The translations under genes and the position numbers were made by a program. Under the pieces are notes generated by a model. That model was given only the letters and a program-made list of their open reading frames with translations. It had not been told where the DNA came from and made no database searches. This document shows positions 11,755 to 36,719 of a stretch of DNA of 64,000 bases, one piece after another; the stretch's first letter is position 1; each line of letters begins with the position of its first letter. The stretch is taken from assembly GCF_056712565.1 (NCBI RefSeq), contig NZ_CM160072.1. One strand, 5' to 3'.

Positions 11755-11871
11755 GAAAGTCCTTCACTTCGGCATGAATAATTTGCGCTTGAGGAATATA
11801 CAGTAACCGCCAATTATGGATGTGTAAACATCTGGACGGCTAAATACTAAAAATTCCATAAGGGGCATATA
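11755..11871. promoter_or_regulatory. metR-metE divergent control region (expected MetR and MetJ sites; not mapped here)
   Basis: 117-bp intergenic region between divergent metR and metE; assignment by synteny with K-12, individual boxes not resolved by eye. Confidence 0.5.
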
Positions 11872-14133: not shown

Positions 14134-14170
14134 TGAGTATTAACGAGTCATTGTAAATTGCAGTACGATA

Positions 14171-14197
14171 ATGGCTTCCAGTACTGGAAGCCATTTT
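14171..14197. terminator. Perfect 24-bp palindrome (atggcttccagtactggaagccat) plus T-run; likely metE terminator
   Basis: Inverted repeat read directly in the sequence, 38 bp after the metE stop. Confidence 0.55.
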
Positions 14198-14301
14198 GCA
14201 TGAGTGCCAGATTGAAGCAGATCTTCAGGAGTAGAAATAACCGAATCGTTTTTTTCGCAAAACACAGTTTTGAGTGATTCCGTTCAGTAATCAACGCTAC
14301 G

Positions 14302-14562
14302 TTATTTATTCTCACGTTGCACGAGATTGTATCCCTTTTCACTAACGTGGTAGTGAGGCATAGACTTATGCCCGCTATCCTCAATAATAACCAAACCTTC
14401 GTTAGCTAATTTGTTAACAATATTAACAACATTACCGAATCCTGGTATTTGCCTTATGGATAGTGTGCGATCGAGATTCATCCAGTTCCAGTTTATATCT
14501 TTCTCAGTCATAACGTTCAGCACGTTAAGTTCATTTTTAGTGATCACGATATTCTGTACCAA
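14302..14562 (-). CDS. Putative immunity protein, copy 2 (86 aa)
   Basis: Paralogue of the adjacent 85-aa ORF (shared blocks NVL.VM.EKDI.W.WM.LDRTL.IR.IP.FGNV.NIV.KL...GLV); sits downstream of the toxin domain in AT-rich DNA. Confidence 0.6.
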   Translation of the reverse strand: MVQNIVITKNELNVLNVMTEKDINWNWMNLDRTLSIRQIPGFGNVVNIVNKLANEGLVIIEDSGHKSMPHYHVSEKGYNLVQRENK

Positions 14563-14621
14563 AATTGATGAGTATCTTATTGAAAGATCACAATGTAAAT
14601 CATGCTCCTGTAATGGCTGGA

Positions 14622-14879
14622 TCAGAAGAGGTTGTCTTGTTGTTCTTTGATAAGATTCAATCCATATTGAGAAACTCTGTAGCGTGGTTTAGAGTTGCCC
14701 TCACCATTTACGATATCAACCAACCCATGATTAACCAGCTTTGTTACGATATTCGCTACGTTGCCAAATTCTGGAATATTTCGTATAGCTAAAGTACGAT
14801 CCAGCACCATCCAGCTCCAGTCAATATCTTTCTCAGCCATAACTTTCAGCACGTTAAATTCAACTATCGTAATCGTCAT
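14622..14879 (-). CDS. Putative cognate immunity protein, copy 1 (85 aa)
   Basis: Start overlaps the stop of the upstream toxin-domain ORF by 4 bp (ATGA), the classic toxin-immunity arrangement. Confidence 0.65.
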   Translation of the reverse strand: MTITIVEFNVLKVMAEKDIDWSWMVLDRTLAIRNIPEFGNVANIVTKLVNHGLVDIVNGEGNSKPRYRVSQYGLNLIKEQQDNLF

Positions 14880-16009
14880 TTTTTTGCATCCGGATGAAAT
14901 AAGTCAGTATCTTTAATTTTAAAGTCTTCTAGAGTTGCAGTATGTGCATTATTCCATAATTCATATCCATCTAAACCATTCGGTTCACCTGTTTCCCATC
15001 CTAAATTACAATAACGCTGATACTCGCGGCATTCATGAGTATAGTAGTTCAGATCGTATTTTTCAGGAAGCAATTCTTTATTTGCTATTTTTTTTAGCCT
15101 TGAAATCATTACATCATTAGCTGGATCATGATCAAATCTGGAGATATGCTTTTCAACAATAGCGATACCTTCCCTATTGATTGTTACGCCATCTATCGTC
15201 AGGTTTTCTATTGGACCACCGGCAAGGTCGGGATTAAATGGTCTTCCTGATACTGCTCCTCTGGCTCCGAAATGCTCAAATGATTCCAAATCAGGGAATC
15301 TCATTCTTCCCAGAACAACTCCAGCAACTATTGAAGCACCAGCGATGAGTAACCCTTTGTTATCCATAACTTGATCGTAACCAGCAGGTGCATCTCCTCC
15401 CAACTTGTTTGCTGTTTCCCTGAATCCTTCGATATTCCCATTGTATATGCCGCCAGCAGCAAGCAGTCTGCCAACCGCTTTACTATTGAGTGTTTTGAGG
15501 CCATTATTATCTTTAGTTTTTTGCCGTGGTATAAACAGACGGTTGTAGTTATCGGGAAATGCCAAATGACTAAATTCAGTATTAGCAATCAGATGCCTGG
15601 AGAGTATATATTCATAACTGACAGTGATGGTTTCTGTATCCAGATTGTTCTCAGTAAACAGGTGATTGATTGCTGATAAGAGCGCGCCGCGGAGTTGAAT
15701 GTTGTAATATTTCTCCTATCGACCAAATCTATTGATCCGATAGAAGTCAAACTCCATGAACAACTGCTCGTTATTGTTAATAGCGTTAATAAGTAACGGG
15801 GAGCTTTTGTCAATCAACTTACAGAAACTAAGGCCATGTAATTGTGACCCTTTGCCTGTATTCGTAATACTATTAGATAGCGAGAACGCGAAGATTTCAT
15901 CTTCATGGCCAATCTGCCAGCGATTACCTATTGATGCGCTCGTTCCGCAACGAGAGGAAATACATCCTTGTTGTTCTCCGGTTATGGTCAGGTAAATTTC
16001 ATCACTCAT
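14876..16009 (-). pseudogene. Hcp-toxin fusion (Hcp-ET-like T6SS tube protein with C-terminal extension) interrupted by an in-frame TAG
   Basis: N-terminal 97 aa (MSDEIYLTITGEQQG...GHEDEIF...KLIDKSSPLL...FYRIN) are Hcp-like; an in-frame TAG at 15716-15718 is followed without further stops by an approx. 280-aa extension (frame checked codon by codon). The 229-aa C-terminal ORF 14876-15565 is the toxin-domain portion. Confidence 0.7.
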
Positions 16010-16493
16010 CTTTGATGAACTCTCTTTATTGCTTGATGTTTTAAAAATAAACAATATTGCTATTTGTTTATAATTATTTACTCCTCAAGTTAATGGATTT
16101 AAATATGGGAAATAAAATGTTTCACTTTAGACCAGTTTTCATGAGGAAAATCTGTAATCATTAATAATAAACATGAATATTTTGCAGTGATTAATATTTG
16201 TTATGAATATAATCTATAACAATGAAGAGTTATCAGTTGTTCGGTGTATAGCCAGAGACGAGTTCAGTTTGTGATTTTTACAGGGCAGTTACAGCCGCAA
16301 AATTTTATGGCTGATTTCACCTTCCCCTCAAGCTTATCTTTCTTAAAAAGAGAAATAATTCTTAAATTCAAATAGTTATATACAATCTACTCTCTTTCTT
16401 GTGACTAGCTTCACATTTCATACTGATGCATTGGAATGAAATAAAATTTCATGAGATTTTGTGTTTGAGAAAAATTATTTCATTAGGTGTGAA

Positions 16494-17051
16494 ATGGACG
16501 CAAAGCTGTACATCACTGAGATCATCAATGAATTAACCTTCGTTAAGGACTCTATCCGTGAGGATGACTGCACCAAATTGATCGACGCTATTCAGCAAAG
16601 CCAGCGCGTTTTCTGCTATGGCCTGGGGCGTGCCGGCTTTTCCATGAAAGCCTTCACCATGCGCCTGATGCATATGGGCAAAGAGGTTTACTTCCTGACG
16701 GAAACCATTACGCCGAACTTTGGGCCTGGCGATCTGTTTATCGTTTCTTCCGCTTCCGGTGAGACAGCACAACTGGTGGCACTGGCGAAAAAAGCACGTC
16801 AGTTTGGCGGCGCTGTGGCGGTGTTAACCACGAATCGACACGCCACTATCACCGAGTTTGTCGACGTCATCGTGCAAATCAATGCCCCTTCCAAAAATCA
16901 AAAAGATTCTGTTTTCCGCTCGGCACAGCCGATGGCGTCGTTGTATGAGCAAGCTTTGCTGGTGATTGCCGATGCATTAGTGATGAAGATGGCTGCTGAA
17001 AGCGGTGCGCCGGAAAGTGAACTGTTTAAGCGCCACGCCAATCTGGAATAG
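16494..17051 (+). CDS. SIS-domain sugar-phosphate isomerase (6-phospho-3-hexuloisomerase-like)
   Basis: About 185 aa from MDAKLYITEI; SIS signatures GLGRAG and SSASGET; first gene of the PTS operon. ORF track starts 11 codons upstream. Confidence 0.7.
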   Translation: MDAKLYITEIINELTFVKDSIREDDCTKLIDAIQQSQRVFCYGLGRAGFSMKAFTMRLMHMGKEVYFLTETITPNFGPGDLFIVSSASGETAQLVALAKKARQFGGAVAVLTTNRHATITEFVDVIVQINAPSKNQKDSVFRSAQPMASLYEQALLVIADALVMKMAAESGAPESELFKRHANLE

Positions 17052-17092
17052 TCGTCGCCGTTATTTGCTCGATACCCTACAGGAGAATAAAA

Positions 17093-18601
17093 ATGAGCAA
17101 AAAAATAACATCCTTGTTTAACTTCAAGAAGTTGCAGAAATTTTCTTCTGCTCTGATGTTACCAATCGCCATTCTTCCGGCGGCGGGTTTGATTTTAGCC
17201 ATCGGGATTTCATTTAACATTGAGCTGCTGGCGAATTGCGGCGGCCTGATTTTCGCCAACCTTCCTTTGCTGTTTTGTGTCGGTATTGTGATTGGCCTGA
17301 CAGGTGATGGTTCTTCATCACTTTCAGCGATTATCAGCTACATGATCATGAATGCCACGATGGGAACGCAACTTGGCATTACCGCGGAGTCCGTTGCAGC
17401 CAGTAACGGTGACTATGCGATGATCCTCGGGGTACCGACGTTACAAACGGGAGTGTTTGGCGGTTTGATTGTCGCCATCTTTGTTTATCTGCTCTATACC
17501 CGCTTCCACAATATTGAATTGCCTCAGTTTCTTGGTTTCTTCGGTGGAAAACGCTTTGTACCGATTATTACGGCGGTGGCGGCAATTATTGTCGGCTATT
17601 TATTGCCGTGGCTGTGGATACCGGTACAAAAAGGTCTGGCGTCGCTTTCAACGCTGGTGACCAGTGGGCATAACGCGAACTTCGCGGCCTTTATTTACGC
17701 CGTTGGCGAACGTTCGCTGATTCCTTTTGGCCTGCATCATATCTGGAACGTGCCGTTTTATTACAACTTTGGCGACTACATGACCAAATCCGGGCAACTG
17801 GTGACGGGCGATATTCCGGTGTTCTTTGCCCAATTGCGCGACGGTGTTCCGTTGACGGCGGGGTTGTTTATGACAGGTCGTTTCCCAATCATGATGTTTG
17901 CGTTACCTGCCGCCGCGTTGGCGATGTATCAGGAAGCAAAACCGGAACGTAAGGCGCTGATTAAAGGCCTTTTACTCTCCGGTGCGCTGACCACATTTGT
18001 TACCGGGATTACGGAGCCGCTGGAATATGCATTTTTGTTTGCAGCTCCGGTTCTCTACATCATTCACATCTTCTTATATGCCACTTCATTTGTGCTGATG
18101 AACATCCTGAATGTGCACATTGGTCATCCTTTTGCTGGCGGTCTTATTGATTTCGTACTGAATGGCGTTATGCCAAACCGCACGCCGTGGTATCTGGTGT
18201 TCCTGGCAGGCGCGGGCTATGCAGCGATTTACTACACCGTATTTCGGGTACTGATCCGCAAGTTGAATCTGAAAACACCGGGACGTGAGGATGAAGAGAT
18301 TGCCGTTGCAACCACATTAACGCGCGAAGAACGTCCATACCAAATCATCGAGGCAGTAGGTGGTTTCGACAATATCGAAGATGTGGATGCCTGCGCAACA
18401 CGCCTGAGGCTGGCGCTGGTAGACGATAAGAAAGTGAATGAAAAACGGCTGAAGGAGTTGGGGGCTGCGGGTTTAGTGAAACTGGGTGATGGCGGTGTAC
18501 AGGTGATATTTGGCGGCAAATCGCAAATCCTGCGCGACGAAATCAAAACCGTAATGAGCAGACCGCGCCCGACAGAAATGACAGTGGCCTGTGCTAACTA
18601 A
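17093..18601 (+). CDS. PTS glucose-family EIICB component
   Basis: 502 aa; EIIC motif GITEPLEYAFLF and C-terminal EIIB domain with phosphorylatable Cys in ACATRLRL. Confidence 0.8.
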   Translation: MSKKITSLFNFKKLQKFSSALMLPIAILPAAGLILAIGISFNIELLANCGGLIFANLPLLFCVGIVIGLTGDGSSSLSAIISYMIMNATMGTQLGITAESVAASNGDYAMILGVPTLQTGVFGGLIVAIFVYLLYTRFHNIELPQFLGFFGGKRFVPIITAVAAIIVGYLLPWLWIPVQKGLASLSTLVTSGHNANFAAFIYAVGERSLIPFGLHHIWNVPFYYNFGDYMTKSGQLVTGDIPVFFAQLRDGVPLTAGLFMTGRFPIMMFALPAAALAMYQEAKPERKALIKGLLLSGALTTFVTGITEPLEYAFLFAAPVLYIIHIFLYATSFVLMNILNVHIGHPFAGGLIDFVLNGVMPNRTPWYLVFLAGAGYAAIYYTVFRVLIRKLNLKTPGREDEEIAVATTLTREERPYQIIEAVGGFDNIEDVDACATRLRLALVDDKKVNEKRLKELGAAGLVKLGDGGVQVIFGGKSQILRDEIKTVMSRPRPTEMTVACAN

Positions 18602-18651
18602 TTCGAGATTAGCGGGCTGGTTTCAGCCCGCCAGACAGAGAGAGCTGAAGT

Positions 18652-20649
18652 ATGAATTCACAATTACTGGCTAACGCCATCCGAATGTTAAGTGTTGATG
18701 CGATCCAGAAAGCGAACTCCGGTCATCCGGGCGCGCCGATGGGGATGGCGGATATTGCCGAAGTGGTCTGGCGTCGTCACCTGCGTCATAACCCAAAAAA
18801 TCCGCAGTGGTTTAACCGCGACCGCTATATTCAGTCGAACGGGCACGGTTCCATGTTGATTTACGCTTTGCTGCATCTTACAGGCTACGACCTGTCGATG
18901 GATGATATTCGCGACTTTCGTCAGCTCCACTCCCGCACGCCAGGTCATCCAGAATATGGTTATACGCCGGGTGTTGAAACCACCACCGGCCCGTTGGGGC
19001 AGGGCGTAGCTAATGCGGTGGGGATGGCGATTGCGGAGAAGGCGCTGGCGGCAGAATTTAACAAACCGGGCTTTAATATTGTTGATCATCACACATGGCT
19101 ATTTTTGGGTGATGGCTGCCTGATGGAAGGGATCTCCCACGAGGCCTGTGGTCTTGCAGGAACGCTGAAGCTCGGCAATCTGATTGCTATCTGGGACGAT
19201 AACGGTATTTCGATCGATGGTCACGTAGAAGGCTGGTTTGCTGAAGATACGGCTGCCCGTTTTCGTGCCTACGGCTGGCATGTCATTGAAGGCGTTGATG
19301 GTCACGATCCAGAAGAGGTAGATGCTGCGGTGCGTGAAGCGAAAAGCGTCACGGATAAGCCCAGTCTGCTGTGCTGCAAAACGATTATCGGTTTTGGTTC
19401 GCCAAATAAAGCCAACAGCCACGATTGCCACGGCTCGGCGCTGGGTGCAGATGAAGTGGCGCTGGTGCGTGAACGTCTGCAATGGCCGTATGCCCCTTTC
19501 GAAATTCCTGGTGAAATTTATGCCGCATGGGATGCGACCGAGAAAGGCGCGCAGGTTCAACAGGAATGGGATGCACTGTTTGCTGACTACGCGAAGCAGT
19601 GGCCGGAACTGGCGGCGGAGTTTACTCGTCGCATGAAGGGTGATTTGCCTGCTGGCTGGGCCGAGAATATGCAGAAATATGTGCACGATCTGCAATCCCA
19701 TCCGGCGGCGCTGGCAACCCGTCAGGTCAGCCAGAAATGCCTCAATCACTTCGCGGATATGCTGCCGGAACTGATGGGCGGCTCGGCGGACTTGTCGCCC
19801 TCTAACCTGACTCGCCATCAGAAATCGGTTGATTTCACCGGGGAAAATCCGGCGGGGAATTACATCTCCTATGGCGTGCGTGAATTTGGTATGTCGGCCA
19901 TCATGAACGGTCTTGCGCTGCATGGTGGGTTTATCCCTTACGGCGGTACTTTCCTGATGTTTATGGAATATGCGCGTAATGCACTGCGCATGGCGGCGCT
20001 GATGAAGATCCGCTCGGTGTTTGTTTATACCCACGATACCATCGGCCTGGGCGAAGACGGCCCGACACATCAGCCCGTTGAGCAACTGGCGTCGCTGCGT
20101 CTGACGCCGAATATGGAAACCTGGCGCGGTTGCGATCAGGTGGAAGTGGCGGTAGCCTGGCAACAGGCGATTGAGCGCAAAGATGGCCCAACGTCGTTGG
20201 TATTAACGCGCCAACCTCTGGCGCAACAGCCGCGCACCGCTGCACAGTTGGCAGAGATTGCGCGTGGTGGTTATGTACTGAGTGATTGTGACGGTCAGCC
20301 TGAGATGATCCTCATTTCTGCGGGTTCAGAGATTGAGTTAGTGGTCAGCGCCGCAAAAGCGTTAACGGAAGAAGGGCGTAAAGTTCGCGTGGTTTCCATG
20401 CCGTGTACCGAGCGTTTCGATAATCAGGATGCGGCGTACAAAGAGTCGGTATTGCCAAAAGCTGTACGCAAACGTCTGGCGGTAGAAGCCAGCATCGCCG
20501 GATTCTGGGAACGCTACGTCGGCCTGGACGGTAAAGTGATCGGCATGACGAGCTTTGGTGAGTCTGCTCCGGCGAATGTGTTGTTCAAACACTTTGGTTT
20601 TACGCCGGAAAATGTCCTGGCGCAGGCGCGTGAGCTACTGAACAGCTAA
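18652..20649 (+). CDS. Transketolase (additional paralogue, TktA/TktB-like)
   Basis: 665 aa; N-terminus ...[18 protein letters not shown] and ThDP-binding GDGCLMEG motif; clearly homologous to TktA but in an accessory context. Confidence 0.85.
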
Positions 20650-20678
20650 ACCTGCACAAGGGGTGAAAGGATGACCTT

Positions 20679-21524
20679 TTACCCCTTGAAACGGGAGCCA
20701 AGAAACTCTTCACGGGTGCGGTATTTCTCGTAATGCGCCTTGTTTTTATACATAAACAACAGCACCAGCATATCAATAACGCCCATTGCCGGAACGCGAG
20801 TGGAGTCGAAGGCTTCAAAGAAGATTTTATCGCTGACCGCGGTATTGAGTTGATGGGTGGAGAGTTTTGATAACGGAGATTTAATATAGTTAGTGATACA
20901 AACGGATTTGGCACCGCGCTCTTTCACCACTTTAAAGATATCGACCATTAAGTTGGTGCTGCCAGAGTTAGAAATACCAATCGCCAGGTCACGTTTCCCC
21001 ATAGAATATGCCGCATTAATTTGCATTTCCGGGCTGACGTGAACAACGGTTTTTAATCCGAGTTGGCTGAATTTATAAGCACCATAAACGGCCAGAGGGT
21101 TTGAATTTCCGGCAGCAAAAAAGAAAATAGTGTCGCAATTAGCAAGTAGTTTGAGAATGGACTCAAGCACTTCGGCATTAAAAAATTGCGTTGATTGTAT
21201 TAAATCTTCGGCCTGTTTTTTTAATAAAAATGTGGCCAGCGACGTTATATCGGTAAAATCGGTATTATCAGGATAGCTATTGTCAGGATTAATGACTTCT
21301 TTTGCTAATGCAATTTTTAAATGGTAATAACCCTGATAACCTAATTTCTTACAGGTGCGTACGATAGTCGCTTCACTGGCATGGCTTTTTTCTGATAGTT
21401 CAGTGACACTATAGTTCACGACTTCATGTGCGTGGCTAAGAATATAGTCAGCGACCTTTTTTTCCGCCTGATGCAGTGTAGGGTAATTGCTTTGAATCAG
21501 ACTTTTTACGGTTATGTTATTCAT
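20679..21524 (-). CDS. RpiR/MurR-family regulator (HTH + SIS)
   Basis: 281 aa; N-terminal HTH (LSEKSHASEATIVRTCKKLGYQGY) and C-terminal SIS domain; convergent with the PTS-transketolase operon. Confidence 0.8.
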   Translation of the reverse strand: MNNITVKSLIQSNYPTLHQAEKKVADYILSHAHEVVNYSVTELSEKSHASEATIVRTCKKLGYQGYYHLKIALAKEVINPDNSYPDNTDFTDITSLATFLLKKQAEDLIQSTQFFNAEVLESILKLLANCDTIFFFAAGNSNPLAVYGAYKFSQLGLKTVVHVSPEMQINAAYSMGKRDLAIGISNSGSTNLMVDIFKVVKERGAKSVCITNYIKSPLSKLSTHQLNTAVSDKIFFEAFDSTRVPAMGVIDMLVLLFMYKNKAHYEKYRTREEFLGSRFKG

Positions 21525-21724
21525 AATTAGTAAATTTCATTCTGACAGAAAGTGCTGATTATAACATAGTTTTCAGGCGTGGATAGGTGTGAAAAAAATG
21601 AAGGTGTGCAGTGAACGTAATGATTAACAGACCGGTTAATTTTCATGAATTACGTCAACTGCACAAAAATAATTTAAACGGGTGCTCTAATTAAAGCAAA
21701 ACTTATATTTTTATCATTGTATTG

Positions 21725-22630
21725 TCAATTAAATACAAATTGTGTCATTAATTGTGGGTTTCTTAAATATTCTATGCACCACTGACAGGCTTTGCCCATA
21801 CCATCGGAACGAGCGGCAAGAAATAACTTGGTGGCGTGTTTATGTTCGCGCATTGGCTTTTTAAGCAATTTACCGCTGTTCAATAACGGCAATGCCAGAT
21901 GATGTGGAATATAACCAATACCGACGTTTTGTTCTATTAAGGCGATTGCCGTAGCGAAGTCAGGAACAAAAATGGGTTTTTGTCCTTCCAACAACCAGGC
22001 TTGCATCGGGGGGAAGTTAACGGAGGTATCGCGGATACAAATCGCTGGATAGTGACGCAATTCACTGTTTTCTAATGGATGCCGCTTCGCTGCCAGTGGG
22101 TGGAGTGGGCTGACGACAAAATCCCATTCCATTTGTCCGACCGGTTCGCTAATGATGCCTTCACTGCTTGGTACTGCATGAGGAGCACCGTAGACCAGAT
22201 CAGCACGCTTACTGTACAGCGCATCCCAGCAGCCGTTGTATACCTCAAGATCTACCGTCAGTGTTGTTGATGTGAATTGCCGTTCAAAATCTCGAATAAA
22301 TGCCACCAGCAAATCACCAGGAATAATATTGTTCACCGCAATTGTCAGTTCACGCTCAATACCATCGTGAATCAGCACTGTGTTGCGCTTTAATGCTTCC
22401 AGGTCGCCAAGAATAGTTTTGCTATGTTCGATGAAGTAACTTCCCGCTGGCGATAATTCAATATAGCGTCCCTTACGAATGAACAGTTCAACGCCCAGGC
22501 TCTCTTCCGCTTTCTTGATGGTGTAACTGATGGCGGAAGGGACTTTATTTAACTGCTCGGCTGCGGTGGTAATGCTCTGGTGTCTGGCGACCAGATGAAT
22601 AACACGAAGCGTTTCGTCTGAGATGAACAT
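21725..22630 (-). CDS. LysR-family transcriptional regulator
   Basis: 301 aa; N-terminal HTH (ITTAAEQLNKVPSAISYTIKKAEESLGVELF); immediately downstream of the catabolic operon. Confidence 0.8.
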   Translation of the reverse strand: MFISDETLRVIHLVARHQSITTAAEQLNKVPSAISYTIKKAEESLGVELFIRKGRYIELSPAGSYFIEHSKTILGDLEALKRNTVLIHDGIERELTIAVNNIIPGDLLVAFIRDFERQFTSTTLTVDLEVYNGCWDALYSKRADLVYGAPHAVPSSEGIISEPVGQMEWDFVVSPLHPLAAKRHPLENSELRHYPAICIRDTSVNFPPMQAWLLEGQKPIFVPDFATAIALIEQNVGIGYIPHHLALPLLNSGKLLKKPMREHKHATKLFLAARSDGMGKACQWCIEYLRNPQLMTQFVFN

Positions 22631-22707
22631 AAGGCTCCCTGGTCAGTGGTAAAGTGGCTGAATCTCTCCAGATTCAGCCGTAATCATTGCCTGAGTATAC
22701 CCAGGAA

Positions 22708-23931
22708 TTAGCGGTGTTGACTTGCCCGACTGAGAATCGCATACGCGATACATGCCACCAGAATCGAGTCTACCGAAGGGATCGTCGTCAGGGTGAATAA
22801 GCCTTTTACGGTCATAAAGCCAACCGCTGCGCCTATGATCCATGCTGCGAATGTCAGCACTTTAATCTGTGACTCCTGGGCTAACACTGACTCTTGATAG
22901 CCATTACGGCGATAAAGGAAAAAGTCAGCGATATAAATTCCGGCAACGGGTGGCGTGGCGATACCCAGGAACAGCAGAAACGGAATAAACCACGCCATAA
23001 TATCCATACTGCCTACGATGGCGGAAAGGATACCCAGCGCCACGGTAATCTGCCATTTGGGAAAGCGGGTAAGCAGTGTGGAAACCACCAGCGTGCCCTG
23101 GAACATATTGCCCGCGTTACCGGTGACGCAGGCGAAAATCAACAACAGCGCCGCAGGCAGAACCGCACCGAATACCGCCATCGCACCCAGTAAAGATCCC
23201 TGACCACTAATGGCGCTCGGCGTTGCACCCGCCCAGTAGAGCAGAGGGTAGGCAACCAGAAACGTCACGCCTGCGGCAATCAGCGCATGTTTGCGGTTAT
23301 GCACAAAACTACCGAAATCAGGCAGTGTGGCAACCAGCACAATAATGGTGCCAACAACGGTGGAAACGGCGACACCTGTATTCATCTCCACAATCGCCGC
23401 TGGTACTGCCACTTCGGTATGGGTTGCCACATAGAGGATGTAACACAGCACCAGCGCGATAACCGGCACGGCAACCTGGGCAATTTTTCCCAGAACGGCA
23501 AAGCCAAATGCCGTAGAGGCGACAAAAATGACACAGCCAGCCGCCACTAACAGTGCCAGTGGAACTTCCAGTCCATGTTGAGCCAGTAAGTCATGTACCG
23601 AATGACCAAACATATTGGCGGTAACGGCAATCCAGCCGAACAGACTTATCGCCATCAAAATGTTAATGGCGATGGCCCCTTTTTCGCCAAACGAATATTT
23701 CACAATGCCATACGTTGGCAGGCGGGCTTTTTCTCCCACGCTAATGGTGATGGCTGAAAGTAAGGTCAGAATGACGCCGCCTAACAATACGACGCTAATT
23801 AAACTGCCGCTGGAAAGTTGATTGCCGAGGCTTGAGGATGACAACAGCACAGGTGTGACGGCAATACCCAGCAAAATCATGGCAATACGCAATCCTGATG
23901 CCGTATTCAGATTCTCTTCTTTTTTACGCAT
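22708..23931 (-). CDS. NCS1-family (CodB-like) permease
   Basis: 407-aa polytopic membrane protein with CodB-like architecture; assignment by pattern only. Confidence 0.6.
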   Translation of the reverse strand: MRKKEENLNTASGLRIAMILLGIAVTPVLLSSSSLGNQLSSGSLISVVLLGGVILTLLSAITISVGEKARLPTYGIVKYSFGEKGAIAINILMAISLFGWIAVTANMFGHSVHDLLAQHGLEVPLALLVAAGCVIFVASTAFGFAVLGKIAQVAVPVIALVLCYILYVATHTEVAVPAAIVEMNTGVAVSTVVGTIIVLVATLPDFGSFVHNRKHALIAAGVTFLVAYPLLYWAGATPSAISGQGSLLGAMAVFGAVLPAALLLIFACVTGNAGNMFQGTLVVSTLLTRFPKWQITVALGILSAIVGSMDIMAWFIPFLLFLGIATPPVAGIYIADFFLYRRNGYQESVLAQESQIKVLTFAAWIIGAAVGFMTVKGLFTLTTIPSVDSILVACIAYAILSRASQHR

Positions 23932-23956
23932 AGTATGTTCCCTTTATAAATGCGCG

Positions 23957-24346
23957 TTACACAGTATGAAAATGCCCGGTGTATTTGCGCCAGCTACCCA
24001 GTTCTGTAATTTCCCGTTGGCCTTCGGTCAGCCAGTTTTCTGCCAGTACGCCCAGCACTTCGCTACCATCGGCAAGTTTGATTTTGCCAATTGCCAGCCC
24101 AGCGGGTTCGCTCATTAACAGAGCGGCAAAACTGGCCAGCGGTAATTGCCAAATTTCTACGTCGACGTGTGTTCCTCCTTCATTCACGCGAATCATTCCC
24201 GGATGGCGATCATTAATACTCCACAACCGGTAATGGGCGTCAGTTCGGTCTTCACGGACAAAAATACCGCCCGCTTTTTGCATATTTGGGTTGAGTTCCA
24301 GGCCGCGCATCAGCGTTCCGTTAACGGCTAAAAGCGTTGTAGTCAT
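23957..24346 (-). CDS. AIG2/gamma-glutamyl-cyclotransferase-like protein
   Basis: 129 aa; N-terminus LLAVNGTLMRG resembles the GGCT/AIG2 fold start; assignment tentative. Confidence 0.5.
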   Translation of the reverse strand: MTTTLLAVNGTLMRGLELNPNMQKAGGIFVREDRTDAHYRLWSINDRHPGMIRVNEGGTHVDVEIWQLPLASFAALLMSEPAGLAIGKIKLADGSEVLGVLAENWLTEGQREITELGSWRKYTGHFHTV

Positions 24347-24362
24347 TGTGTTCTCCAGAGAA

Positions 24363-25319
24363 TTAAAGGGTTATCCATGTACCGCTCTGATGCGCCAGGG
24401 CTGCTTTTATGGTTTGCGGTGAAGTAATCAGGCCGCTGGCCTGTTTGCCTTGTTGCTGGCTGGCATTGATGAAATCAACAATGGCTTCCACTTTGGGTTG
24501 CATACTGCCGACACCAAACTGACCTTCCCGCAACAGCGTTTGCGCTTCGGCAACGCTGATAGCGTCGAGCCACTGTTGTTGTGGTGTACCAAAGTTAATC
24601 GCTACTTTTTCTACACCGGTGGGGATCACCAGCAGATCTGCGCCTAACTGACTGGCGAGCAGCGCGGAGGCCAGATCTTTATCGATCACGGCTTCTACAC
24701 CTTTCAGTTGTTGCCCGTCTCGCACCACCGGAATACCGCCGCCGCCGCAGGCAATAACCAGATATCCCTGGCGCACCAGGTGAGCGATGGTGTCGTGCTC
24801 AATAATTTCCAGTGGTGCAGGAGAGGGAACTGTACGCCGCCAACCACGCCCGGCGTCCTCCATCAGCGTCCAGCCGAGTTGTTGTTGGCGTTGTTGGGCC
24901 GTTGCTTCATCGAGAAACGCGCCAATTGGTTTACTGGGGCTGGCGAAAGCATCGTCATGTGGGCTGACTCGCGTTTGTGTCACCAGGGCAATTACCGGTT
25001 TGTTTATGCCACGGCGAGCCAATTCGTTATGCAGCGCTTTCTGGAACATGTAGCCAATTGCACCTTGTGTATCACCCACGGCGTAATCAAGTGGAACCGG
25101 AGAAACTTCGTTACTGGCGAGTTCAGAGCGGCGCAGAATAAAGCCCACCTGCGGGCCATTACCGTGGGTTAGTACCAGGTCCCATCCGGCTTCAACCATA
25201 TCAACGATATGTTGCACGCTTTCCATCACTGCAACATATTGATCGGGAATACTATTGCGTTGCTCGTCCTGAATGAGCGCATTGCCGCCAACCGCGACGA
25301 CAGCCAGTGGCTTAACCAT
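24363..25319 (-). CDS. Carbamate kinase-like protein
   Basis: From MVKPLAVVAVGGNAL...; amino-acid kinase fold with ACGGGGIPVV motif; ORF-track start is a spurious upstream extension. Confidence 0.8.
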   Translation of the reverse strand: MVKPLAVVAVGGNALIQDEQRNSIPDQYVAVMESVQHIVDMVEAGWDLVLTHGNGPQVGFILRRSELASNEVSPVPLDYAVGDTQGAIGYMFQKALHNELARRGINKPVIALVTQTRVSPHDDAFASPSKPIGAFLDEATAQQRQQQLGWTLMEDAGRGWRRTVPSPAPLEIIEHDTIAHLVRQGYLVIACGGGGIPVVRDGQQLKGVEAVIDKDLASALLASQLGADLLVIPTGVEKVAINFGTPQQQWLDAISVAEAQTLLREGQFGVGSMQPKVEAIVDFINASQQQGKQASGLITSPQTIKAALAHQSGTWITL

Positions 25320-26736
25320 GATGGTTCTCCTTTGCGACGATCTCCGCCAGTGCACGTACAGCGGCGACAAAACAGGCCATCGGCGCAGTGGTGATCCCGG
25401 CACCAATTTGCCCGACCCCCGCTTGTTTGTGGGCGATACCCGTATTGATGACCGGTAAAATGCCGCGATCGGTCACTTTACGCGCATCAATTCCTGCTGC
25501 GGTGGGGGCAAAATTGAGGGCTGGAAGTGTAAATGCGGGGTTACCGCCGAGGGTGATGGCTTGCATCCGACGGCTGTTATTGGTGGCATCGGCAGGGGTG
25601 CCTCCCACAAATTTGACGATCGCCGGAGACGACGCCATCGCGAAGCCACCCATACCTGCGGTTTCAGTAATTGCGCTATCACCCAGGTCAGCAGCAGCGT
25701 CGTCAACGCCAAATCCGGGGAAGAACAGACCTTCAACGGCATTGGCAGGAGCCTGGAACCAGCGATCGCTAGTACCGGAAAGCCGAATACCAAAACTCAC
25801 CCCGTTACGCGCCATCACCGTAACCATTGAACTGAACGGTACATTGGCGGCGGCATCCATCATTGCTTTACAGGCGGCCATCGACAGATTGAGGAAGAAG
25901 TGATCGTTACCGGTGATAAATGCCACGACGCGCTGGATATGTTCCTGTGGAAGAGAGCAGGCCAGCAATGCCGGGAGCAGGCGCTTAATCAGCAAACCGG
26001 TAGCGGCAGCATTGCGGTTATGAACTTCATCCCCCATATGCAGCGCCTGCGCCATTAATGGCTTGAGTTCCAGCTCGCCGTGTTGTGCGATTGCTGCTTT
26101 CATTGCCGGCGCCAGTTCATCGCGCATCCAGGCCAGACGATTGAGAACTTCATCGTTATTGGCGCCAAAACGGAGAACCTTACCCAGACCTTCATTGAAA
26201 TTGCTAAAAGTACGATGGCCGTTGGTTTTGTTTTCTACCACCCATAACGGCATCGACGGGCTGATGATGCCTGCCATTGGGCCAACCGCGTGATAATGAT
26301 GACAAGGGGCAAGGTCGATTTCGCCTGCGTTTATTTGGTTTTCAGCGTCTTGCTGGCTGGTGGCCCAACCTTCGTACAGCATGGCACCAATAATCGCCCC
26401 TTTTACCGGACCACACATCTCTTCCCAGGCAATCGGCGGGCCAGAGTGCAAAATACGTTTTTGTTCAGCCATTGCTGGAATGGCCTCTTTAGCGAGCATG
26501 ACATCCACCAGCATGGGCTGTGCTTCGAGATAACGTGTCATGGCGATTTGGTTGGCATTTTCTACCAGGGGATGACGTAGCAACGATGCCAGATCCAATC
26601 CAGCGTCAATATCGCCTTGTGCTGGTGGCTGCCAGTTGAGTGCAATTGCGCTTCCCCCGGCATGTTGAATATTGTCAGCAAAACTGTGTAGTCCCGCGTT
26701 CACAACCTTCAAAGGCTGATTAAATAAGGTATTCAT
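25312..26736 (-). CDS. YlbE-like (DUF1116) protein
   Basis: About 474 aa from MNTLFNQPL; start overlaps the fdrA-like stop by 4 bp; paralogous to the K-12 allantoin-region ylbE. Confidence 0.7.
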   Translation of the reverse strand: MNTLFNQPLKVVNAGLHSFADNIQHAGGSAIALNWQPPAQGDIDAGLDLASLLRHPLVENANQIAMTRYLEAQPMLVDVMLAKEAIPAMAEQKRILHSGPPIAWEEMCGPVKGAIIGAMLYEGWATSQQDAENQINAGEIDLAPCHHYHAVGPMAGIISPSMPLWVVENKTNGHRTFSNFNEGLGKVLRFGANNDEVLNRLAWMRDELAPAMKAAIAQHGELELKPLMAQALHMGDEVHNRNAAATGLLIKRLLPALLACSLPQEHIQRVVAFITGNDHFFLNLSMAACKAMMDAAANVPFSSMVTVMARNGVSFGIRLSGTSDRWFQAPANAVEGLFFPGFGVDDAAADLGDSAITETAGMGGFAMASSPAIVKFVGGTPADATNNSRRMQAITLGGNPAFTLPALNFAPTAAGIDARKVTDRGILPVINTGIAHKQAGVGQIGAGITTAPMACFVAAVRALAEIVAKENHHG

Positions 26737-28292
26737 GCGTTTAGCCCCTTTTTCTGCAACTGAGTCTGTGCAACGGTGCTGGCCCATAGCGCCGCCTGTG
26801 CATTGCTGCTGGCGATGATGACCCCTGCATTTTGTAGTGCTCTTATCTGCTGACTGCGTATTTGCGGATCAGCTTCCGTTCCGCAAACGTGCGCAATCAG
26901 CAACGGTGCGTTATTCATGTCGATGTGTGAAAGTTGGTCCAGTAATTCGCTGGCAGGCGCCGTGGAAGCGCCATAACCAAGTACCAGGTCGAATAACACG
27001 ACGGCAGTGTGTGAGTCGTTGAGTTCGTTGAGCAGACGTTGATTGCGCAGAGTCGGGTCGATCATTGGATGCGGTTTGCCACGGGTGAAATCATCGTCGC
27101 CCATATCGATCAACGTGTGATCTTCGCTTTGCCAGATATTTGCCAGAGCACGATTACCCGCAACTGGCGTATTGGAAGCTGCGCTGAATCCCTTTTGTTG
27201 GCAGATAAGTTGCGCTTCGTAGCAGAAGGTTCCTCCGGCGAAAACACCGCGTATCGCCTGGCGATGGGCTGGCAGGCGCTGACAGGCGTTTTGTAACATT
27301 GTGAGATCGGCGCAGGAAATCTCGGTCTCGACAGCCGGAAGTGGCTGAGCATTCAGTAACGCTACGGCGATATTTGCGGCGCTGGCAAGTGTGGTGGCCG
27401 CGGTGATATTGGGACGTGCCAGATCATGCGGATTCGCACCGAGGAAATTCACCACCACGGGTTTTCCACAAGCCTCGGCGCGCTCCAGAATAGTCTGGGC
27501 AACGATCGGTGAAGGCGGTTTTGAAATCAGCACAATCACGCGAGTTTCATCGTCTTGCGCCAGCGCATCTAAAGCGAAGAGCATCGATATTCCACCAATC
27601 TCTTCACTGAGATCATGCCCACCGGTTCCCAACGCCTGAGAAATACCCGCTCCGAGCTGGTCGATTCGGCAAGTCACTTCCTGTAGCCCGGTGCCTGACG
27701 CGCCAATAACACCAATTGCTCCGCGTTTCACCACATTAGCGAAGCCTAACGGAATGCCGTTAACAATGGCGGTTCCACAGTCAGGTCCCATTACGATGCG
27801 CTGACGTTCTCGGGCAAGCGTTTTGATAGATTTTTCCTGCCCGATACTGACGTTATCGCTGAACATCATCACGTTCATTCCGAGGTTTAACGCTTTAATT
27901 GCTTCGGCGGCGGCGTAGTCTCCCGGTACAGAAATGAGTGCCAGGTTGGCTTCGGGTTCGGCTTCCAGTGCCATTTCCAGGCTGACCTTTTCCGGTGTTT
28001 TAATGCCACTATCCGTTTCATCATCGGGTTTGCTGGTCAGACGTTGCTGGGCCAGTACCAGTGCTTCATTGCAAATATCTTCTTCACCCATGACTGCAAT
28101 CACTAAATCATTGGGACTGGCGTTGATTTCGTTACCCAGACCCGCATCGCGCAATTGTTCGAGATTATTGGGCGTTCCCATGACGACCGAGGCCTGTTGA
28201 ATACCGGGCAACTTGCTGATTTGCGCGGAAATCTGCATCAGAGAAACTGAGTCCTGATAAAGATTACTGAAAACTTTATATTTAACTTTCAT
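26733..28292 (-). CDS. FdrA-like protein (CoA-binding, succinyl-CoA-synthetase-alpha-like)
   Basis: 519 aa; resembles FdrA of the K-12 allantoin region. Confidence 0.75.
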   Translation of the reverse strand: MKVKYKVFSNLYQDSVSLMQISAQISKLPGIQQASVVMGTPNNLEQLRDAGLGNEINASPNDLVIAVMGEEDICNEALVLAQQRLTSKPDDETDSGIKTPEKVSLEMALEAEPEANLALISVPGDYAAAEAIKALNLGMNVMMFSDNVSIGQEKSIKTLARERQRIVMGPDCGTAIVNGIPLGFANVVKRGAIGVIGASGTGLQEVTCRIDQLGAGISQALGTGGHDLSEEIGGISMLFALDALAQDDETRVIVLISKPPSPIVAQTILERAEACGKPVVVNFLGANPHDLARPNITAATTLASAANIAVALLNAQPLPAVETEISCADLTMLQNACQRLPAHRQAIRGVFAGGTFCYEAQLICQQKGFSAASNTPVAGNRALANIWQSEDHTLIDMGDDDFTRGKPHPMIDPTLRNQRLLNELNDSHTAVVLFDLVLGYGASTAPASELLDQLSHIDMNNAPLLIAHVCGTEADPQIRSQQIRALQNAGVIIASSNAQAALWASTVAQTQLQKKGLNA

Positions 28293-28386
28293 GCTGTTAC
28301 GCCTGTTTCATTCCGCCCGATAGCAAAATTCGGGCAAAGCATCCCCGTGTAGCCCCATAAACGGGCTACGGGAGAAAAGGTTGAAA

Positions 28387-29247
28387 TCAATTCATGGTGT
28401 TCAGGGTTCGAAAGCCATGCAGCATTCCTGCAAGGCAATCTACTCCTGACGTTGCGCCAAATTGCATGACCTGTTCTGCACAGGATGCGATTGTCATTGC
28501 CGATGCGCTCCCAACCAGTTGTGCGAGTAACTGGCAAATCGGTTCTGAAAAATGTCCCTGAAGCGCACGCTCCAGATAATGACGACTGATATCCGTGGTG
28601 TTGTGCGCATGTTGATCAATTGCCTGCTGCAACCGGTATTGATGATCGGCAAGTGGTGCAGGGAGTTGCCATAACCAGAGCGCTGCCAGATAGCCCAACA
28701 AATAGTCATCTCCATCGGGCGTTAAGCCTTTACCAAAGCCGATCAGTTGTGGCACCTGGCGTTCCAGCGCATCTGGATGCTCCATAATTGCTAATCCCTG
28801 GTGCGTGAGACTATCCGGCAGGTGCAATGTGCTTTGAACGTTATGTTCCAGACAAAATAAAAGCCGTTGCGATGCCATCGTTGGGTAGTGCTGGAAAACC
28901 AAAGGGAATGCCTCAAGTGTCAGCATTCTCCCCACAAATGGCGACTGCCAGAGCGTTGCGTTTTCGAGCGCCACACAAAATCGAGGTGTCCGCAGTAAGC
29001 CTTGGGTTAACTGAATGGGATCTGAATGGGCAATCTCTCTTCGCCAGTCCCAACATTCAGGTAGCCAGACTCTGGCAGCATCAGGGAGATTCAGATACGT
29101 TTGCGCACACAACAGAGTGATGAATGTTCCCGCGTCTGAATACAGATTTACCGCATGTTTAAAAGCGCTATGTAGACGTAAATCTTGCGTTTCATTCTGC
29201 GGGAAAAGATATCCCAACGACGATGCGCAAAGCGTAACCTGTACCAT
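28387..29247 (-). CDS. YlbF-like (DUF2877) protein
   Basis: 286 aa; position and size consistent with the third member of the FdrA/YlbE/YlbF triad; family call by context. Confidence 0.55.
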   Translation of the reverse strand: MVQVTLCASSLGYLFPQNETQDLRLHSAFKHAVNLYSDAGTFITLLCAQTYLNLPDAARVWLPECWDWRREIAHSDPIQLTQGLLRTPRFCVALENATLWQSPFVGRMLTLEAFPLVFQHYPTMASQRLLFCLEHNVQSTLHLPDSLTHQGLAIMEHPDALERQVPQLIGFGKGLTPDGDDYLLGYLAALWLWQLPAPLADHQYRLQQAIDQHAHNTTDISRHYLERALQGHFSEPICQLLAQLVGSASAMTIASCAEQVMQFGATSGVDCLAGMLHGFRTLNTMN

Positions 29248-29252
29248 CGGCG

Positions 29253-29921
29253 TTAGCCTTCCAGACCTGCAATAATGGCTTTGGAATCAGTAACCCAACC
29301 GAAAATGGCACCTTGTGCTTTGATCATCTCGAGGGCGTATTTCTGGAATTCCGGGAAATAGGAGCCGACACAATCTTCCGGGATAATGCATTCATAGCCA
29401 CGATCATTTGCTTCGCGCACGGTGGTGGTTACGCAAACTTCGGTTGTTACACCACAAACTATCAGCGTCTTGATACCGTGGTTTTGCAAAATCAGATGTA
29501 AGTCGGTTTGATAAAACGCGCCTTTGCCAGGCTTATCAATCACCGGTTCGCCTGCCACCGGGTACAGTTCAGGAATGATGTCATGACCTGCTTCACCTCT
29601 GACCAGAATGCGTCCCATCGGTCCTGGTTCACCAATAAAGGTTTTTCCGCCGCGCGTCAGTTTGGCTGGCGGGCAGTCGCTTAAGTCTGCACGATGGCCT
29701 TCACGAGTATGAATAACCATAATTCCTTTTTGACGTGCGGCTGCCAGCACCTCTGTACATGGTGCGATAGCCGTGCGTACCAGTGAAACATCATTGCCCA
29801 GAGCCTCACCGAAGCCCCCTGCTTCGACAAAGTCACGCTGCATGTCGATCATGACCAGTGCAGTTGTGCGCGGATCAAAAGGTAATTCAAAGGGTTGAGC
29901 CTGAAAAATGGATTGCGTCAT
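29253..29921 (-). CDS. Isochorismatase-family cysteine hydrolase (RutB-like amidohydrolase)
   Basis: 222 aa; motifs ALVMIDMQ, LIVCGVTTEVCVTTT and AIFGWVTD parallel the RutB catalytic triad regions; first gene of the operon. Confidence 0.8.
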   Translation of the reverse strand: MTQSIFQAQPFELPFDPRTTALVMIDMQRDFVEAGGFGEALGNDVSLVRTAIAPCTEVLAAARQKGIMVIHTREGHRADLSDCPPAKLTRGGKTFIGEPGPMGRILVRGEAGHDIIPELYPVAGEPVIDKPGKGAFYQTDLHLILQNHGIKTLIVCGVTTEVCVTTTVREANDRGYECIIPEDCVGSYFPEFQKYALEMIKAQGAIFGWVTDSKAIIAGLEG

Positions 29922-30177
29922 GGTAAATCTCCTGTCTGATGTTTAAACGATCCAGTTGTTCTGAGAACGAGTATTCAGGAGAAAAGCGACACAAAACAGG
30001 AAAAAAGTTTGCCGCACAGCAACGAAATTTTTGCATTCAGCAGGTGGTGTGATGACGAATGTGAAGGGAGTCAAAGAGTGGCATACAGCAACAAATTTTT
30101 TGATGCTGTATGGTTTTGAGATTAAAAAAATCGTTGAAATTGTGTGAGCTTAATCATCAGATTTAGCGACTATGGCG

Positions 30178-30987
30178 TTACTTTTTAACACCATACTGTG
30201 TAAACCATTCCAACATTCGCTGCCAGCCGTCTTTCGCAGATTCGGCATGATAGCTCGGACGATAATCGGCGTTGAACGCATGCCCTGCATCCGGGTACAC
30301 GATAATCTCTGCTTTCGCGTTTGCTGCCCGCAGCGCCTGGCGCATCGTTTCCACGCTCTCTTGCGGAATGCTGTTATCCTGGCCGCCATATAAGCCGAGA
30401 ACCGGAGCGTTAAGATCGGTTGCGATATCAACAGGTTGTTTCGGTGAATTCAGCGACTTATCGCCCGTCAGTTTGCCGTACCACGCCACTGCGGCTTTTA
30501 GCTGTGGATTATGCGCGGCATACAGCCAGGTGATACGTCCACCCCAGCAGAATCCGGTGATCATTAAACGATGAACATCGCCGCCGTTGCGGGAAGCCCA
30601 ACTGGCGACATGATCGAGATCGGCCAGCACCTGCGAGTCAGGCACTTTTGCTACCAGACCGCTAAGCAACGTGGGGATATCGGCAAAATCATTCGGATCG
30701 CCTTCGCGGAAGTAAAGTTCAGGTGCGATAGCCAGATACCCCTCCAGCGCCAGACGGCGACAAATGTCGCGGATATGTTCATGCACGCCAAAAATTTCCT
30801 GCACTACAATGACCACTGGCAGTGGGCCATCGCTTTGCTTTGGTCTGGCATGGTAAGCAGGCATGTTATCCCCTTGTGAAGGGATAGAGGTGAAGCCCGC
30901 CACAATCGCGTCGTCCGGAGTCTGAACGATGGTCGAAGCGAGAGGCGATGCAGCAGGTGCAAATCCAGATTGTTGTGTTGTTGCCAT
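30178..30987 (-). CDS. ysgA: Dienelactone hydrolase family protein YsgA
   Basis: From MATTQQSGFAPAA... (269 aa); alpha/beta hydrolase with GFCWGG nucleophile elbow. Confidence 0.88.
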   Translation of the reverse strand: MATTQQSGFAPAASPLASTIVQTPDDAIVAGFTSIPSQGDNMPAYHARPKQSDGPLPVVIVVQEIFGVHEHIRDICRRLALEGYLAIAPELYFREGDPNDFADIPTLLSGLVAKVPDSQVLADLDHVASWASRNGGDVHRLMITGFCWGGRITWLYAAHNPQLKAAVAWYGKLTGDKSLNSPKQPVDIATDLNAPVLGLYGGQDNSIPQESVETMRQALRAANAKAEIIVYPDAGHAFNADYRPSYHAESAKDGWQRMLEWFTQYGVKK

Positions 30988-31248
30988 GGTATTCTCCGTA
31001 CCCTTATAAAAATGTTGCGCAATGTTAACTATAGTCAGCATGCAACAAATCACATTGCCTGAATCGGCTCATCTTTTATGCAGTCCTGCAGAATGAAGAG
31101 TGATTTATGTGATTTGCATCACTTTTGATGGGTAAATTTATGCAACACATTTTCGTCATGGTGATGAGTATCACGAAAAAATGTTAAACCCTTCGGTAAA
31201 GTGTCTTTTTGCTTCTTCTGACTAAACCGATTCACAGAGGAGTTGTAT

Positions 31249-33538: not shown

Positions 33539-33550
33539 TGCTGGCCCCTG

Positions 33551-34060: not shown

Positions 34061-34073
34061 CCGTACCTCAGGT

Positions 34074-35048: not shown

Positions 35049-35072
35049 TGCTTTTATATCCTTATTTATCAG

Positions 35073-36696: not shown

Positions 36697-36719
36697 TAGT
36701 CGTTTCCTTTAATCATGGT

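Follow-up and report, generated by a model that had tools for sequence, protein, structure and literature searches.

How does a 16-kb block of genes come to stand between two core genes that nearly touch in Escherichia coli K-12, and how does it spread, if none of its genes encodes a means of mobility? We asked this of a 64,000-nt stretch of contig NZ_CM160072.1 (RefSeq assembly GCF_056712565.1), hereafter the window, which matches the type strain E. coli ATCC 11775 (NZ_CP033092.2) at 100% identity. The core genes metE (11872–14133, plus strand; PGAP) and ysgA (30178–30987, minus strand; PGAP) are convergent, and the short interval between them hosts the cassettes described here: the metE stop is 39 bp from the ysgA stop in K-12 MG1655, compared with a gap of 16,044 bp (14134–30177) in the window, where PGAP annotates 15 coding sequences and no mobility genes. 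A reading made from the letters of the window alone (the sequence-only reading) had placed the two genes almost side by side in K-12 and proposed an insertion of about 16 kb, made of three unrelated modules. The distances confirm the insertion, and the division into modules is borne out by the fact that each of the three also occurs separately. We conclude, with a probability of roughly 0.8, that the block is the known tkt1 island, and that it is a non-mobile stack of three self-contained cassettes (M1, M2 and M3) at an enterobacterial site for foreign DNA.

The limits of the cassettes were determined by aligning variant loci to the window, which placed M1 (a predicted Hcp-toxin and immunity cassette) at 14238–16206, M2 (the tkt1 phosphosugar cassette) at 16393–21746 and M3 (a predicted ureide-type operon) at 21747–30179. 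Between metE and M1 lies a 104-bp post-metE segment, T_B (14134–14237; hairpin at 14170–14195, AATGGCTTCCAGTACTGGAAGCCATT), which was defined by junction reads and by blastn of the variant loci. T_B is common to the full, M3-only and M1-only configurations and to lineage E69 (described below), and it is distinct from the K-12-type terminator. The guanine plus cytosine (GC) content is 50.9% for the whole window and 48.6% for the island, with 37.6% in M1, 49.1% in M2 and 51.3% in M3. It falls to 28.1% in the spacer at 16010–16493 and to 31% in the M2/M3 spacer at 21525–21724, and it is 40.9% in the rpiR gene of M2 and 46.1% in the lysR gene of M3. The sequence-only reading was correct that the toxin module and the first spacer are AT-rich and that the phosphotransferase system (PTS) and catabolic modules have a core-like composition, but it overlooked rpiR, lysR and 21525–21724. 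With these included, AT-rich DNA is present at every module boundary. A promoter and terminator scan was uninformative, yielding counts equal to the shuffled expectation.

We counted the configurations of the locus over 5,426 complete E. coli genomes, using junction-spanning queries; metE itself was present in 5425 of them. The window's own form, T_B-M1-M2-M3, is carried by 460 genomes (8.5%). Another 673 genomes have M2-M3 behind a K-12-type terminator and a ysgA remnant, 363 have M3 as the only cassette behind T_B, and about 388 have M1 without M2 (848 – 460). The remainder, about 3,540 genomes (65%) by subtraction, are essentially empty and K-12-like. Counted by cassette, M1 was found in 848 genomes, which fall into three allele classes (≥99% identity in 455, about 95.6% in 274 and about 88% in 119), M2 in 1135 and M3 in 1559 (29%), the last occupying 1502 chromosomal and 129 plasmid places. 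The full and the remnant-bearing forms sum to 1133 genomes (460 + 673), and therefore just two configurations carry M2, which essentially never occurs without M3. Segments of the island were recovered at 99–100% identity from S88, IHE3034, CFT073, Nissle 1917 and O1:K1:H7 strains of avian pathogenic E. coli (APEC), all of which we take to be B2 strains.

The joins between the cassettes bear on how the island was assembled. Single unbroken alignments connect the window to an M2+M3 locus (L003) over 16393–31100, to an M1-only locus (L005) over 11800–16206 and to an M3-only locus (L004) across the breakpoint 14237|21747. Each internal junction is the same in all of its carriers, indicating that each was formed once and, consequently, that the island was assembled stepwise. 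The divergent AT-rich spacer at 16010–16493 is itself composite: M1 upstream DNA extends to 16206, a 186-bp filler that is found in the full configuration only occupies 16207–16392, and M2 upstream DNA begins at 16393. The M2/M3 junction DNA spans 21525–21746, and its breakpoint relative to the M3-only form, 21746|21747, lies within the 3′ end of lysR. The C-termini of LysR vary between configurations, as do the final codons of ysgA, which read QYGVKK before the stop in the window and QYGGKKSL in K-12.

The form carried by 673 genomes preserves a record of its entry. After metE it has the K-12-type terminator, 42 bp of a K-12-type ysgA 3′ end (3 mismatches), 183 bp of filler and then M2, and the complete ysgA at its far end starts with the M3-linked allele. 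A 24-bp imperfect direct repeat from the ysgA 3′ end (CAsCATACTGyGTAAACCATTCCA) thereby brackets M2+M3 in L003. Because the K-12-type terminator and the 42-bp ysgA remnant were kept, M2+M3 entered an empty site. The three fillers (183 bp in L003, 16207–16392 in the window and 212 bp in L005) yielded no relatives by megablast in each other, in a metagenomic relative of M2 (L058) or elsewhere in E. coli. We also considered whether the M1-only form arose simply when a full island lost M2+M3. This was ruled out by the 212 bp of unrelated DNA and the third ysgA end at its right junction, and it is contradicted as well by the commonest M1-only allele, which is about 4.4% divergent.

Homologous recombination cannot have made these junctions, because the 3′ ends of lysR and ysgA were replaced, because the fillers are unrelated AT-rich DNA, and because at least one join was one-sided and illegitimate. 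The sequence-only reading had proposed stepwise acquisition by homologous recombination at a hotspot. The stepwise assembly and the hotspot are supported by the shared junctions and the five configurations, whereas homologous recombination may be invoked for the spread of the island and not for the making of its junctions.

In the mechanism that we propose, M3 would have been the oldest occupant of the metE–ysgA interval. M2 would have been joined once to the 3′ end of the M3 lysR gene, and M1, before or after M2, would have been joined once to the post-metE segment, where it is now decaying. Each junction would have been made by illegitimate end-joining, overwriting the 3′ ends of genes and leaving AT-rich filler behind. 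The finished alleles would then have moved between strains, or been lost, through homologous recombination in the flanking core genes. At least once, M2+M3 would have entered a K-12-like empty site, guided by homology towards ysgA and udp and joined illegitimately, at its other end, within the 3′ end of the recipient's ysgA.

The age of M3 is indicated by its presence at the same site in other lineages. Citrobacter amalonaticus and Citrobacter sp. On2M both have M3 in the metE–ysgA interval, and in one Lelliottia species its lysR gene abuts metE; the DNA identity of these loci is 74–76% in M3 and 83–85% in the flanks. In E69 (L011, CP089930.1), M3 stands behind the same T_B with the same junctions in one unbroken alignment, and it is 95.4% identical to the window while both flanks are 94.2% identical, in a lineage that is about 5–6% divergent. 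Since the divergence of M3 in E69 equals that of its flanks, and since M3 occupies the interval in Citrobacter and Lelliottia, the site has long been polymorphic for M3. With its interval and junctions shared by E69, M3 is not simply a recent insertion relative to K-12. E69 is probably a divergent or cryptic Escherichia lineage and not a typical E. coli. Across metE, M3 and ysgA–udp, it is about 94–95% identical to the type strain.

The empty state is also found in outgroups, as metE and ysgA are separated by 42 bp in Salmonella enterica and by 62 bp in C. sedlakii. Other cargo was found at the site as well. In C. amalonaticus S646 (L033 2900–6350), the segment between ysgA and M3 holds an orphan hcp gene, a gene for a 313-aa serine recombinase (XisF/invertase-like) and further open reading frames (ORFs); this is the only recombinase at the site among the genomes examined. 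In a further enterobacterium (L060 6881–8176; about 83% identity at metE), the interval holds an anaerobic sulfatase maturase radical SAM gene. This genome was considered as another Escherichia species and rejected, being 80–84% identical to the window. By these comparisons, the metE–ysgA interval is a hotspot in several genera, with an empty state and an M3 state that are both old.

The signal of recombination comes from comparing strains. In one strain pair, BL21 and K-12, identity falls from 99–100% to 95–98% within a tract of about 28 kb; in BL21 this tract holds the M3-only form and an islet between udp and rmuC, and K-12 lacks both. The B2 type strain and BL21 share 99.2% identity in M3, compared with 97.9% in metR–metE. 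Across phylogroups, the identities are 99.2% for M3 and 96.6–98.4% for the metR–metE flank.

Several points weigh against the proposed assembly and spread. A T_B-M2-M3 intermediate was found in none of the 5,426 genomes. The 183-bp and 186-bp segments upstream of M2 are unrelated to each other. M3 could have come to stand at this site in three genera by old vertical descent and many losses, or it could have been transferred along with its flanks, two histories that five taxa do not separate. The deficit of diversity in M3 relative to its flanks is modest. Finally, the tract in BL21 and K-12 shows mosaic ancestry, but we infer the direction of transfer and its generality, and either BL21 or K-12 could be the recombinant.

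A classical pathogenicity island or integrative element encodes an integrase or other recombinase, adjoins a tRNA gene and has direct repeats at its ends. The sequence-only reading had seen no integrase, transposase or flanking transfer RNA (tRNA) gene, and it is upheld by annotation, NCBIfam, ARAGORN and a repeat search. No recombinase or mobility protein family was found among the 15 block products (PGAP, NCBIfam), no tRNA gene was found at window positions 9000–36000 (ARAGORN; the nearest is in an rrn operon about 25 kb away), no Rfam family was found in 10000–34000, and the search for flanking repeats in 13900–30400 yielded only short matches at chance level.

The 24-bp repeat would nevertheless be accommodated if the island, or M2+M3, were a degenerate integrative element that was site-specific for the ysgA 3′ end and whose integrase was lost or acted in trans. 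The repeat flanks M2+M3 in 673 genomes with the gene end regenerated, as in integration at an att site, and C. amalonaticus has its serine recombinase gene in the same interval. However, a recombinase gene is present in none of the E. coli configurations examined, no such repeats occur at T_B|M1, M1|M2, M2|M3 or T_B|M3, and the right copy of the repeat is the normal ysgA allele of M3-only chromosomes. Because that copy is an existing allele, one-sided homologous and illegitimate recombination can also explain the repeat without a site-specific enzyme, and we regard an integrative element as improbable. It is a long shot that the metE–ysgA interval is a docking site for a recombinase acting in trans on the 24-bp ysgA 3′ end, with the serine recombinase of C. 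amalonaticus as the surviving enzyme. If true, such a recombinase would explain why, in several genera, the site receives cassettes that are unrelated and encode no integrase.

M3 is also carried by plasmids, and the cassettes might have been delivered by plasmids or insertion sequences (IS) as composite transposons that later lost their IS elements. We found the whole M3 operon, about 94.5% identical to that of E. coli chromosomes, on 82 conjugative plasmids, 4 of which are from Klebsiella and the other 78 from Escherichia, and fragments of IS3, IS1 and IS66 lie on both sides of it in one inspected plasmid (pEND_Eco 18055; L006 8001–16171). IS1 and IS3 insertions are likewise found in M1 of some strains. 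This delivery is nonetheless doubtful in the extreme: the chromosomal junctions lack IS scars, inverted repeats and target-site duplications, the IS elements in M1 disrupt the cassette and do not flank it, and the plasmid copies of M3 are 5.5% divergent from the chromosomal ones. At that divergence, the plasmid copy is neither the source nor a recent derivative of chromosomal M3, and a plasmid origin of chromosomal M3 was ruled out. With 92.6% identity to the M3 of E69, the plasmid copy represents a third Escherichia-level allele. Several of the M3 plasmids are from poultry or APEC strains, and the ends of the copy in pEND_Eco 18055 nearly match the chromosomal M3 boundaries.

The least probable alternative, in which the ancestor of E. 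coli already had the entire 16-kb block and K-12 arose by deletion, can draw on M3 in the same interval of a divergent Escherichia lineage, Citrobacter and Lelliottia and on the resemblance of the M3-linked ysgA end (QYGVKK) to those of Citrobacter (QYGSKK) and Salmonella (QYSKK), but we set it aside because the block is far from uniformly conserved (460 of 5426 genomes, 8.5%, carry all of it and about 65% are empty), metE and ysgA are adjacent in Salmonella and C. sedlakii, M2 has nearly no Enterobacterales relatives and is confined to two E. coli configurations, M1 has 37.6% GC and its relatives in other genera are at a different locus, and entry into an empty site is shown by the K-12-type terminator and the ysgA remnant of the M2+M3 form. 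Ancestry may hold, at most, for M3 alone.

The oldest of the three cassettes, M3, has eight genes, all on the minus strand. Its promoter region extends up to the ysgA stop (29922–30177; sequence reads) and is recognisably conserved, by eye and unscored, in Citrobacter sp. On2M and in the plasmid copy. In order of transcription, the genes encode a cysteine hydrolase of the isochorismatase family that is BiuH/RutB-like (29253–29921), a YlbF/AllH-like DUF2877 protein (28387–29247; 33% identity to K-12 YlbF over 110 aa), an FdrA/AllF-like protein (26733–28292; NF004760, 499 bits against a cut-off of 433; 40% to K-12 FdrA), a YlbE/AllG-like DUF1116 protein (25312–26736; 48% to K-12 YlbE), a carbamate kinase (24363–25319; TIGR00746, 366.2 bits against a cut-off of 358.25; 39% to K-12 YbcF/AllK), a 129-aa protein like the C-terminal part of allophanate hydrolase (23957–24346; matching NF006043 positions 472–595), an NCS1-family permease annotated as a cytosine permease (22708–23931; NCBIfam) and a PunR/AllS-like regulator of the LysR family (21725–22630; NCBIfam). 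In strain FCI17, PGAP names the counterpart of the DUF2877 gene product 'AllH family protein'.

This gene content is that of a predicted ureide-type operon for nitrogen and energy. Tentatively, a carbamoyl compound would be taken up and deamidated, an AllFGH-like phosphorolysis would yield carbamoyl phosphate, and carbamate kinase would convert it to ATP and ammonia. AllFGH is a characterised oxamic transcarbamylase (PMC11326118), and M3 resembles the K-12 allFGHK operon (Kim and Kim 2024, PMC11326118; PMC9843812) in having contiguous homologues of FdrA, DUF1116 and DUF2877 together with a carbamate kinase. In contrast to allFGHK, the M3 genes have another order, their products are just 33–48% identical, and they are linked to an NCS1 permease, a BiuH-like hydrolase and a protein like the C-domain of allophanate hydrolase, not to allECD. 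No allantoin (all) genes adjoining M3 were found in the window, and its gene neighbourhood and low identity to AllFGH do not point to oxalurate as the substrate. The assigned function is weakened by the score of the BiuH-like hydrolase, which at 279.8 bits falls under the cut-off of 370 for biuret amidohydrolase (NF050097). Elsewhere, the M3 cluster occurs in other contexts in Serratia, Rahnella, Enterobacter, Caballeronia, Burkholderia and others, with DUF1116 identities of 76–88%.

M2 has four genes. Three are on the plus strand and encode an HxlB-like SIS-domain protein resembling 6-phospho-3-hexuloisomerase (16494–17051; TIGR03127, 204.9 bits against a cut-off of 160), a PTS IIBC component of the glucose family (17093–18601; TIGR02002, 608.6 bits against a cut-off of 591.8) and Tkt1, a transketolase paralogue (18652–20649; TIGR00232, 1008 bits); the fourth, on the minus strand, encodes a regulator of the MurR/RpiR family (20679–21524; PGAP, NCBIfam). 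The full four-gene cassette also occurs on a metagenomic contig beside unrelated genes (L058), and this relative, 72% identical in DNA and in another gene context, delimits a conserved core at 16432–21520. Close relatives of the PTS IIBC protein are very few (metagenomic proteins at 85–92% identity and one from Serratia ficaria at 84%; outside E. coli, the nearest were put at 84–88%), and the next ones, at 50–70%, are from Fusobacteriota and Firmicutes. The gene content suggests that M2 serves the PTS uptake and isomerisation of a phosphosugar. An experimental finding speaks against that role: Li et al. 2012 (PMC3349570) reported almost no transketolase activity for Tkt1. They also described a tkt1 mutant that is impaired in using some dipeptides as a nitrogen source.

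The genes of M1 are all on the minus strand. The first is a tssD/Hcp gene with a C-terminal extension toxin (14876–16009), followed by two immunity-like ORFs of 85 aa (ORF 2, 14622–14879; PGAP) and 81 aa (ORF 1, 14302–14547; no NCBIfam match), ORF 2 overlapping the toxin gene stop by 4 nt. In the window, the toxin gene is a pseudogene by translation, with a stop at codon 98 (15716–15718); this corrects the sequence-only reading, which had spoken of a toxin module. The intact ortholog in the M1-only locus (L005 3577–4710) has 377 aa, of which residues 1–147 form the Hcp domain (TIGR03344, PF05638) and about 230 aa lie beyond it. Full-length relatives of the toxin at 76–78% identity, each followed by an 89-aa ORF, are found in Salmonella enterica and Citrobacter europaeus at another locus, between a GFO/IDH-family oxidoreductase gene and ggt. 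ORFs 1 and 2 are 59% identical to each other and 39–40% identical to the ORF that directly follows the Hcp-toxin gene in Salmonella and Citrobacter. Conserved synteny and homology thus support the two small ORFs as candidate cognate immunity genes.

Residues 1–228 of the toxin, its Hcp part, recur with several other C-termini, and residues 172–377 reappear in 348-aa proteins from Pantoea, Lonsdalea and Klebsiella aerogenes, where they stand behind another N-terminal region. To judge from these alignments, such swapping of N- and C-terminal parts follows the pattern of polymorphic toxins. The extension gave no Pfam match, with the Hcp domain alone being matched, and no PDB sequence match; an AlphaFold2 model from a 16-sequence alignment reached a pLDDT of just 52.8 and was discarded. 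In one database source, a homologous fragment carries the name 'HNH endonuclease'. Positions with H, E, C, R and W are invariant within the toxin domain, a YTHECRE motif among them, but the domain matched no family.

The toxin gene has been inactivated repeatedly and independently across strains: Nissle 1917 has an annotated internal stop, MFDS1019527 has a different stop, the O145 strain RM9467-C1 has an IS3 insertion, and CFSAN061768 has an IS1 in place of a missing tssD. M1 is best described as a predicted interbacterial toxin with immunity, whose toxin is dead here and whose putative immunity genes are kept. It is an orphan, as no type VI secretion system (T6SS) cluster lies near it in the window. 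M1 resembles the Hcp-ET effectors (Ma et al. 2017, as summarised in PMC6730261) in its N-terminal Hcp domain, its extension of about 230 aa, the recurrence of both toxin parts in other combinations and the duplicated immunity-like genes that follow. It differs from them in that its toxin is inactivated, is an orphan of a T6SS cluster in the window, and has an extension without a Pfam or PDB match.

Two neighbouring intervals also differ between strains. The islet between udp and rmuC (32048–37487), absent from K-12 and present in BL21, encodes an IclR regulator, 2-dehydro-3-deoxygalactonokinase and aldolase paralogues, and a TctCBA tricarboxylate transporter. The corA–rarD interval (window 582–1924) has YPO3983-family and DUF943 genes where K-12 has yigF–yigG. 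BL21 (L009 5220–6885) has both of these gene sets and a partial duplicate of the corA 3′ end, which is the same kind of displaced 3′-end scar as the ysgA remnant.

The block itself is not new. It is the published tkt1 genomic island of B2 and extraintestinal pathogenic E. coli, which Li et al. (2012, BMC Microbiol 12:51, PMC3349570) describe in APEC O1 as a 16-kb insertion at the metE–ysgA site with 15 ORFs and 48.57% GC, lacking flanking direct repeats, integrases and transposases. There it is strongly associated with B2 strains of APEC, uropathogenic E. coli and neonatal meningitis E. coli, tkt1 is studied experimentally, and a second islet between udp and rmuC is noted. The island and the block in the window agree in site, size, GC content (48.57% and 48.6%) and gene set, including PTS IIBC, tkt1, carbamate kinase, the permease and the regulators. 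A 2026 genome paper on strain BEN2908 (PMC12928451) lists the same region as GR 29, with its ORFs annotated. In their accessible portions, both publications (PMC3349570, PMC12928451) treat the block as one unit; those descriptions contain no division into three cassettes, no five configurations with counts, no ysgA remnant and no cross-genus occupancy by M3. The dissection at the level of cassettes and the junction scar are what is added here to the published island.

The locus also resembles the hotspots of horizontal gene transfer without mobile elements (Oliveira et al. 2017, Nat Commun 8:841, PMC5635113), in which, as here, variable accessory genes lie between two core genes with no self-mobilising element and with flanks of mosaic ancestry. 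It differs from them in that its junctions can be read base by base, one of them showing a one-sided illegitimate join, and in that one and the same interval holds cargo in at least Escherichia, Citrobacter, Lelliottia and the L060 enterobacterium.

The tkt1 island is thus a clean, countable example of an island that lacks mobility genes, was built from three cassettes of different age, each joined once, and was then probably shuffled among lineages; at one junction, a scar records that an empty site was entered. M3 has a far wider distribution than the tkt1 cassette, being present in 29% of genomes and on conjugative plasmids that include those of avian pathogenic strains, and it may therefore be the part under selection. 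The four-gene tkt1 cassette is separable from the M3 operon, and virulence or fitness phenotypes of the island are to be assigned cassette by cassette.

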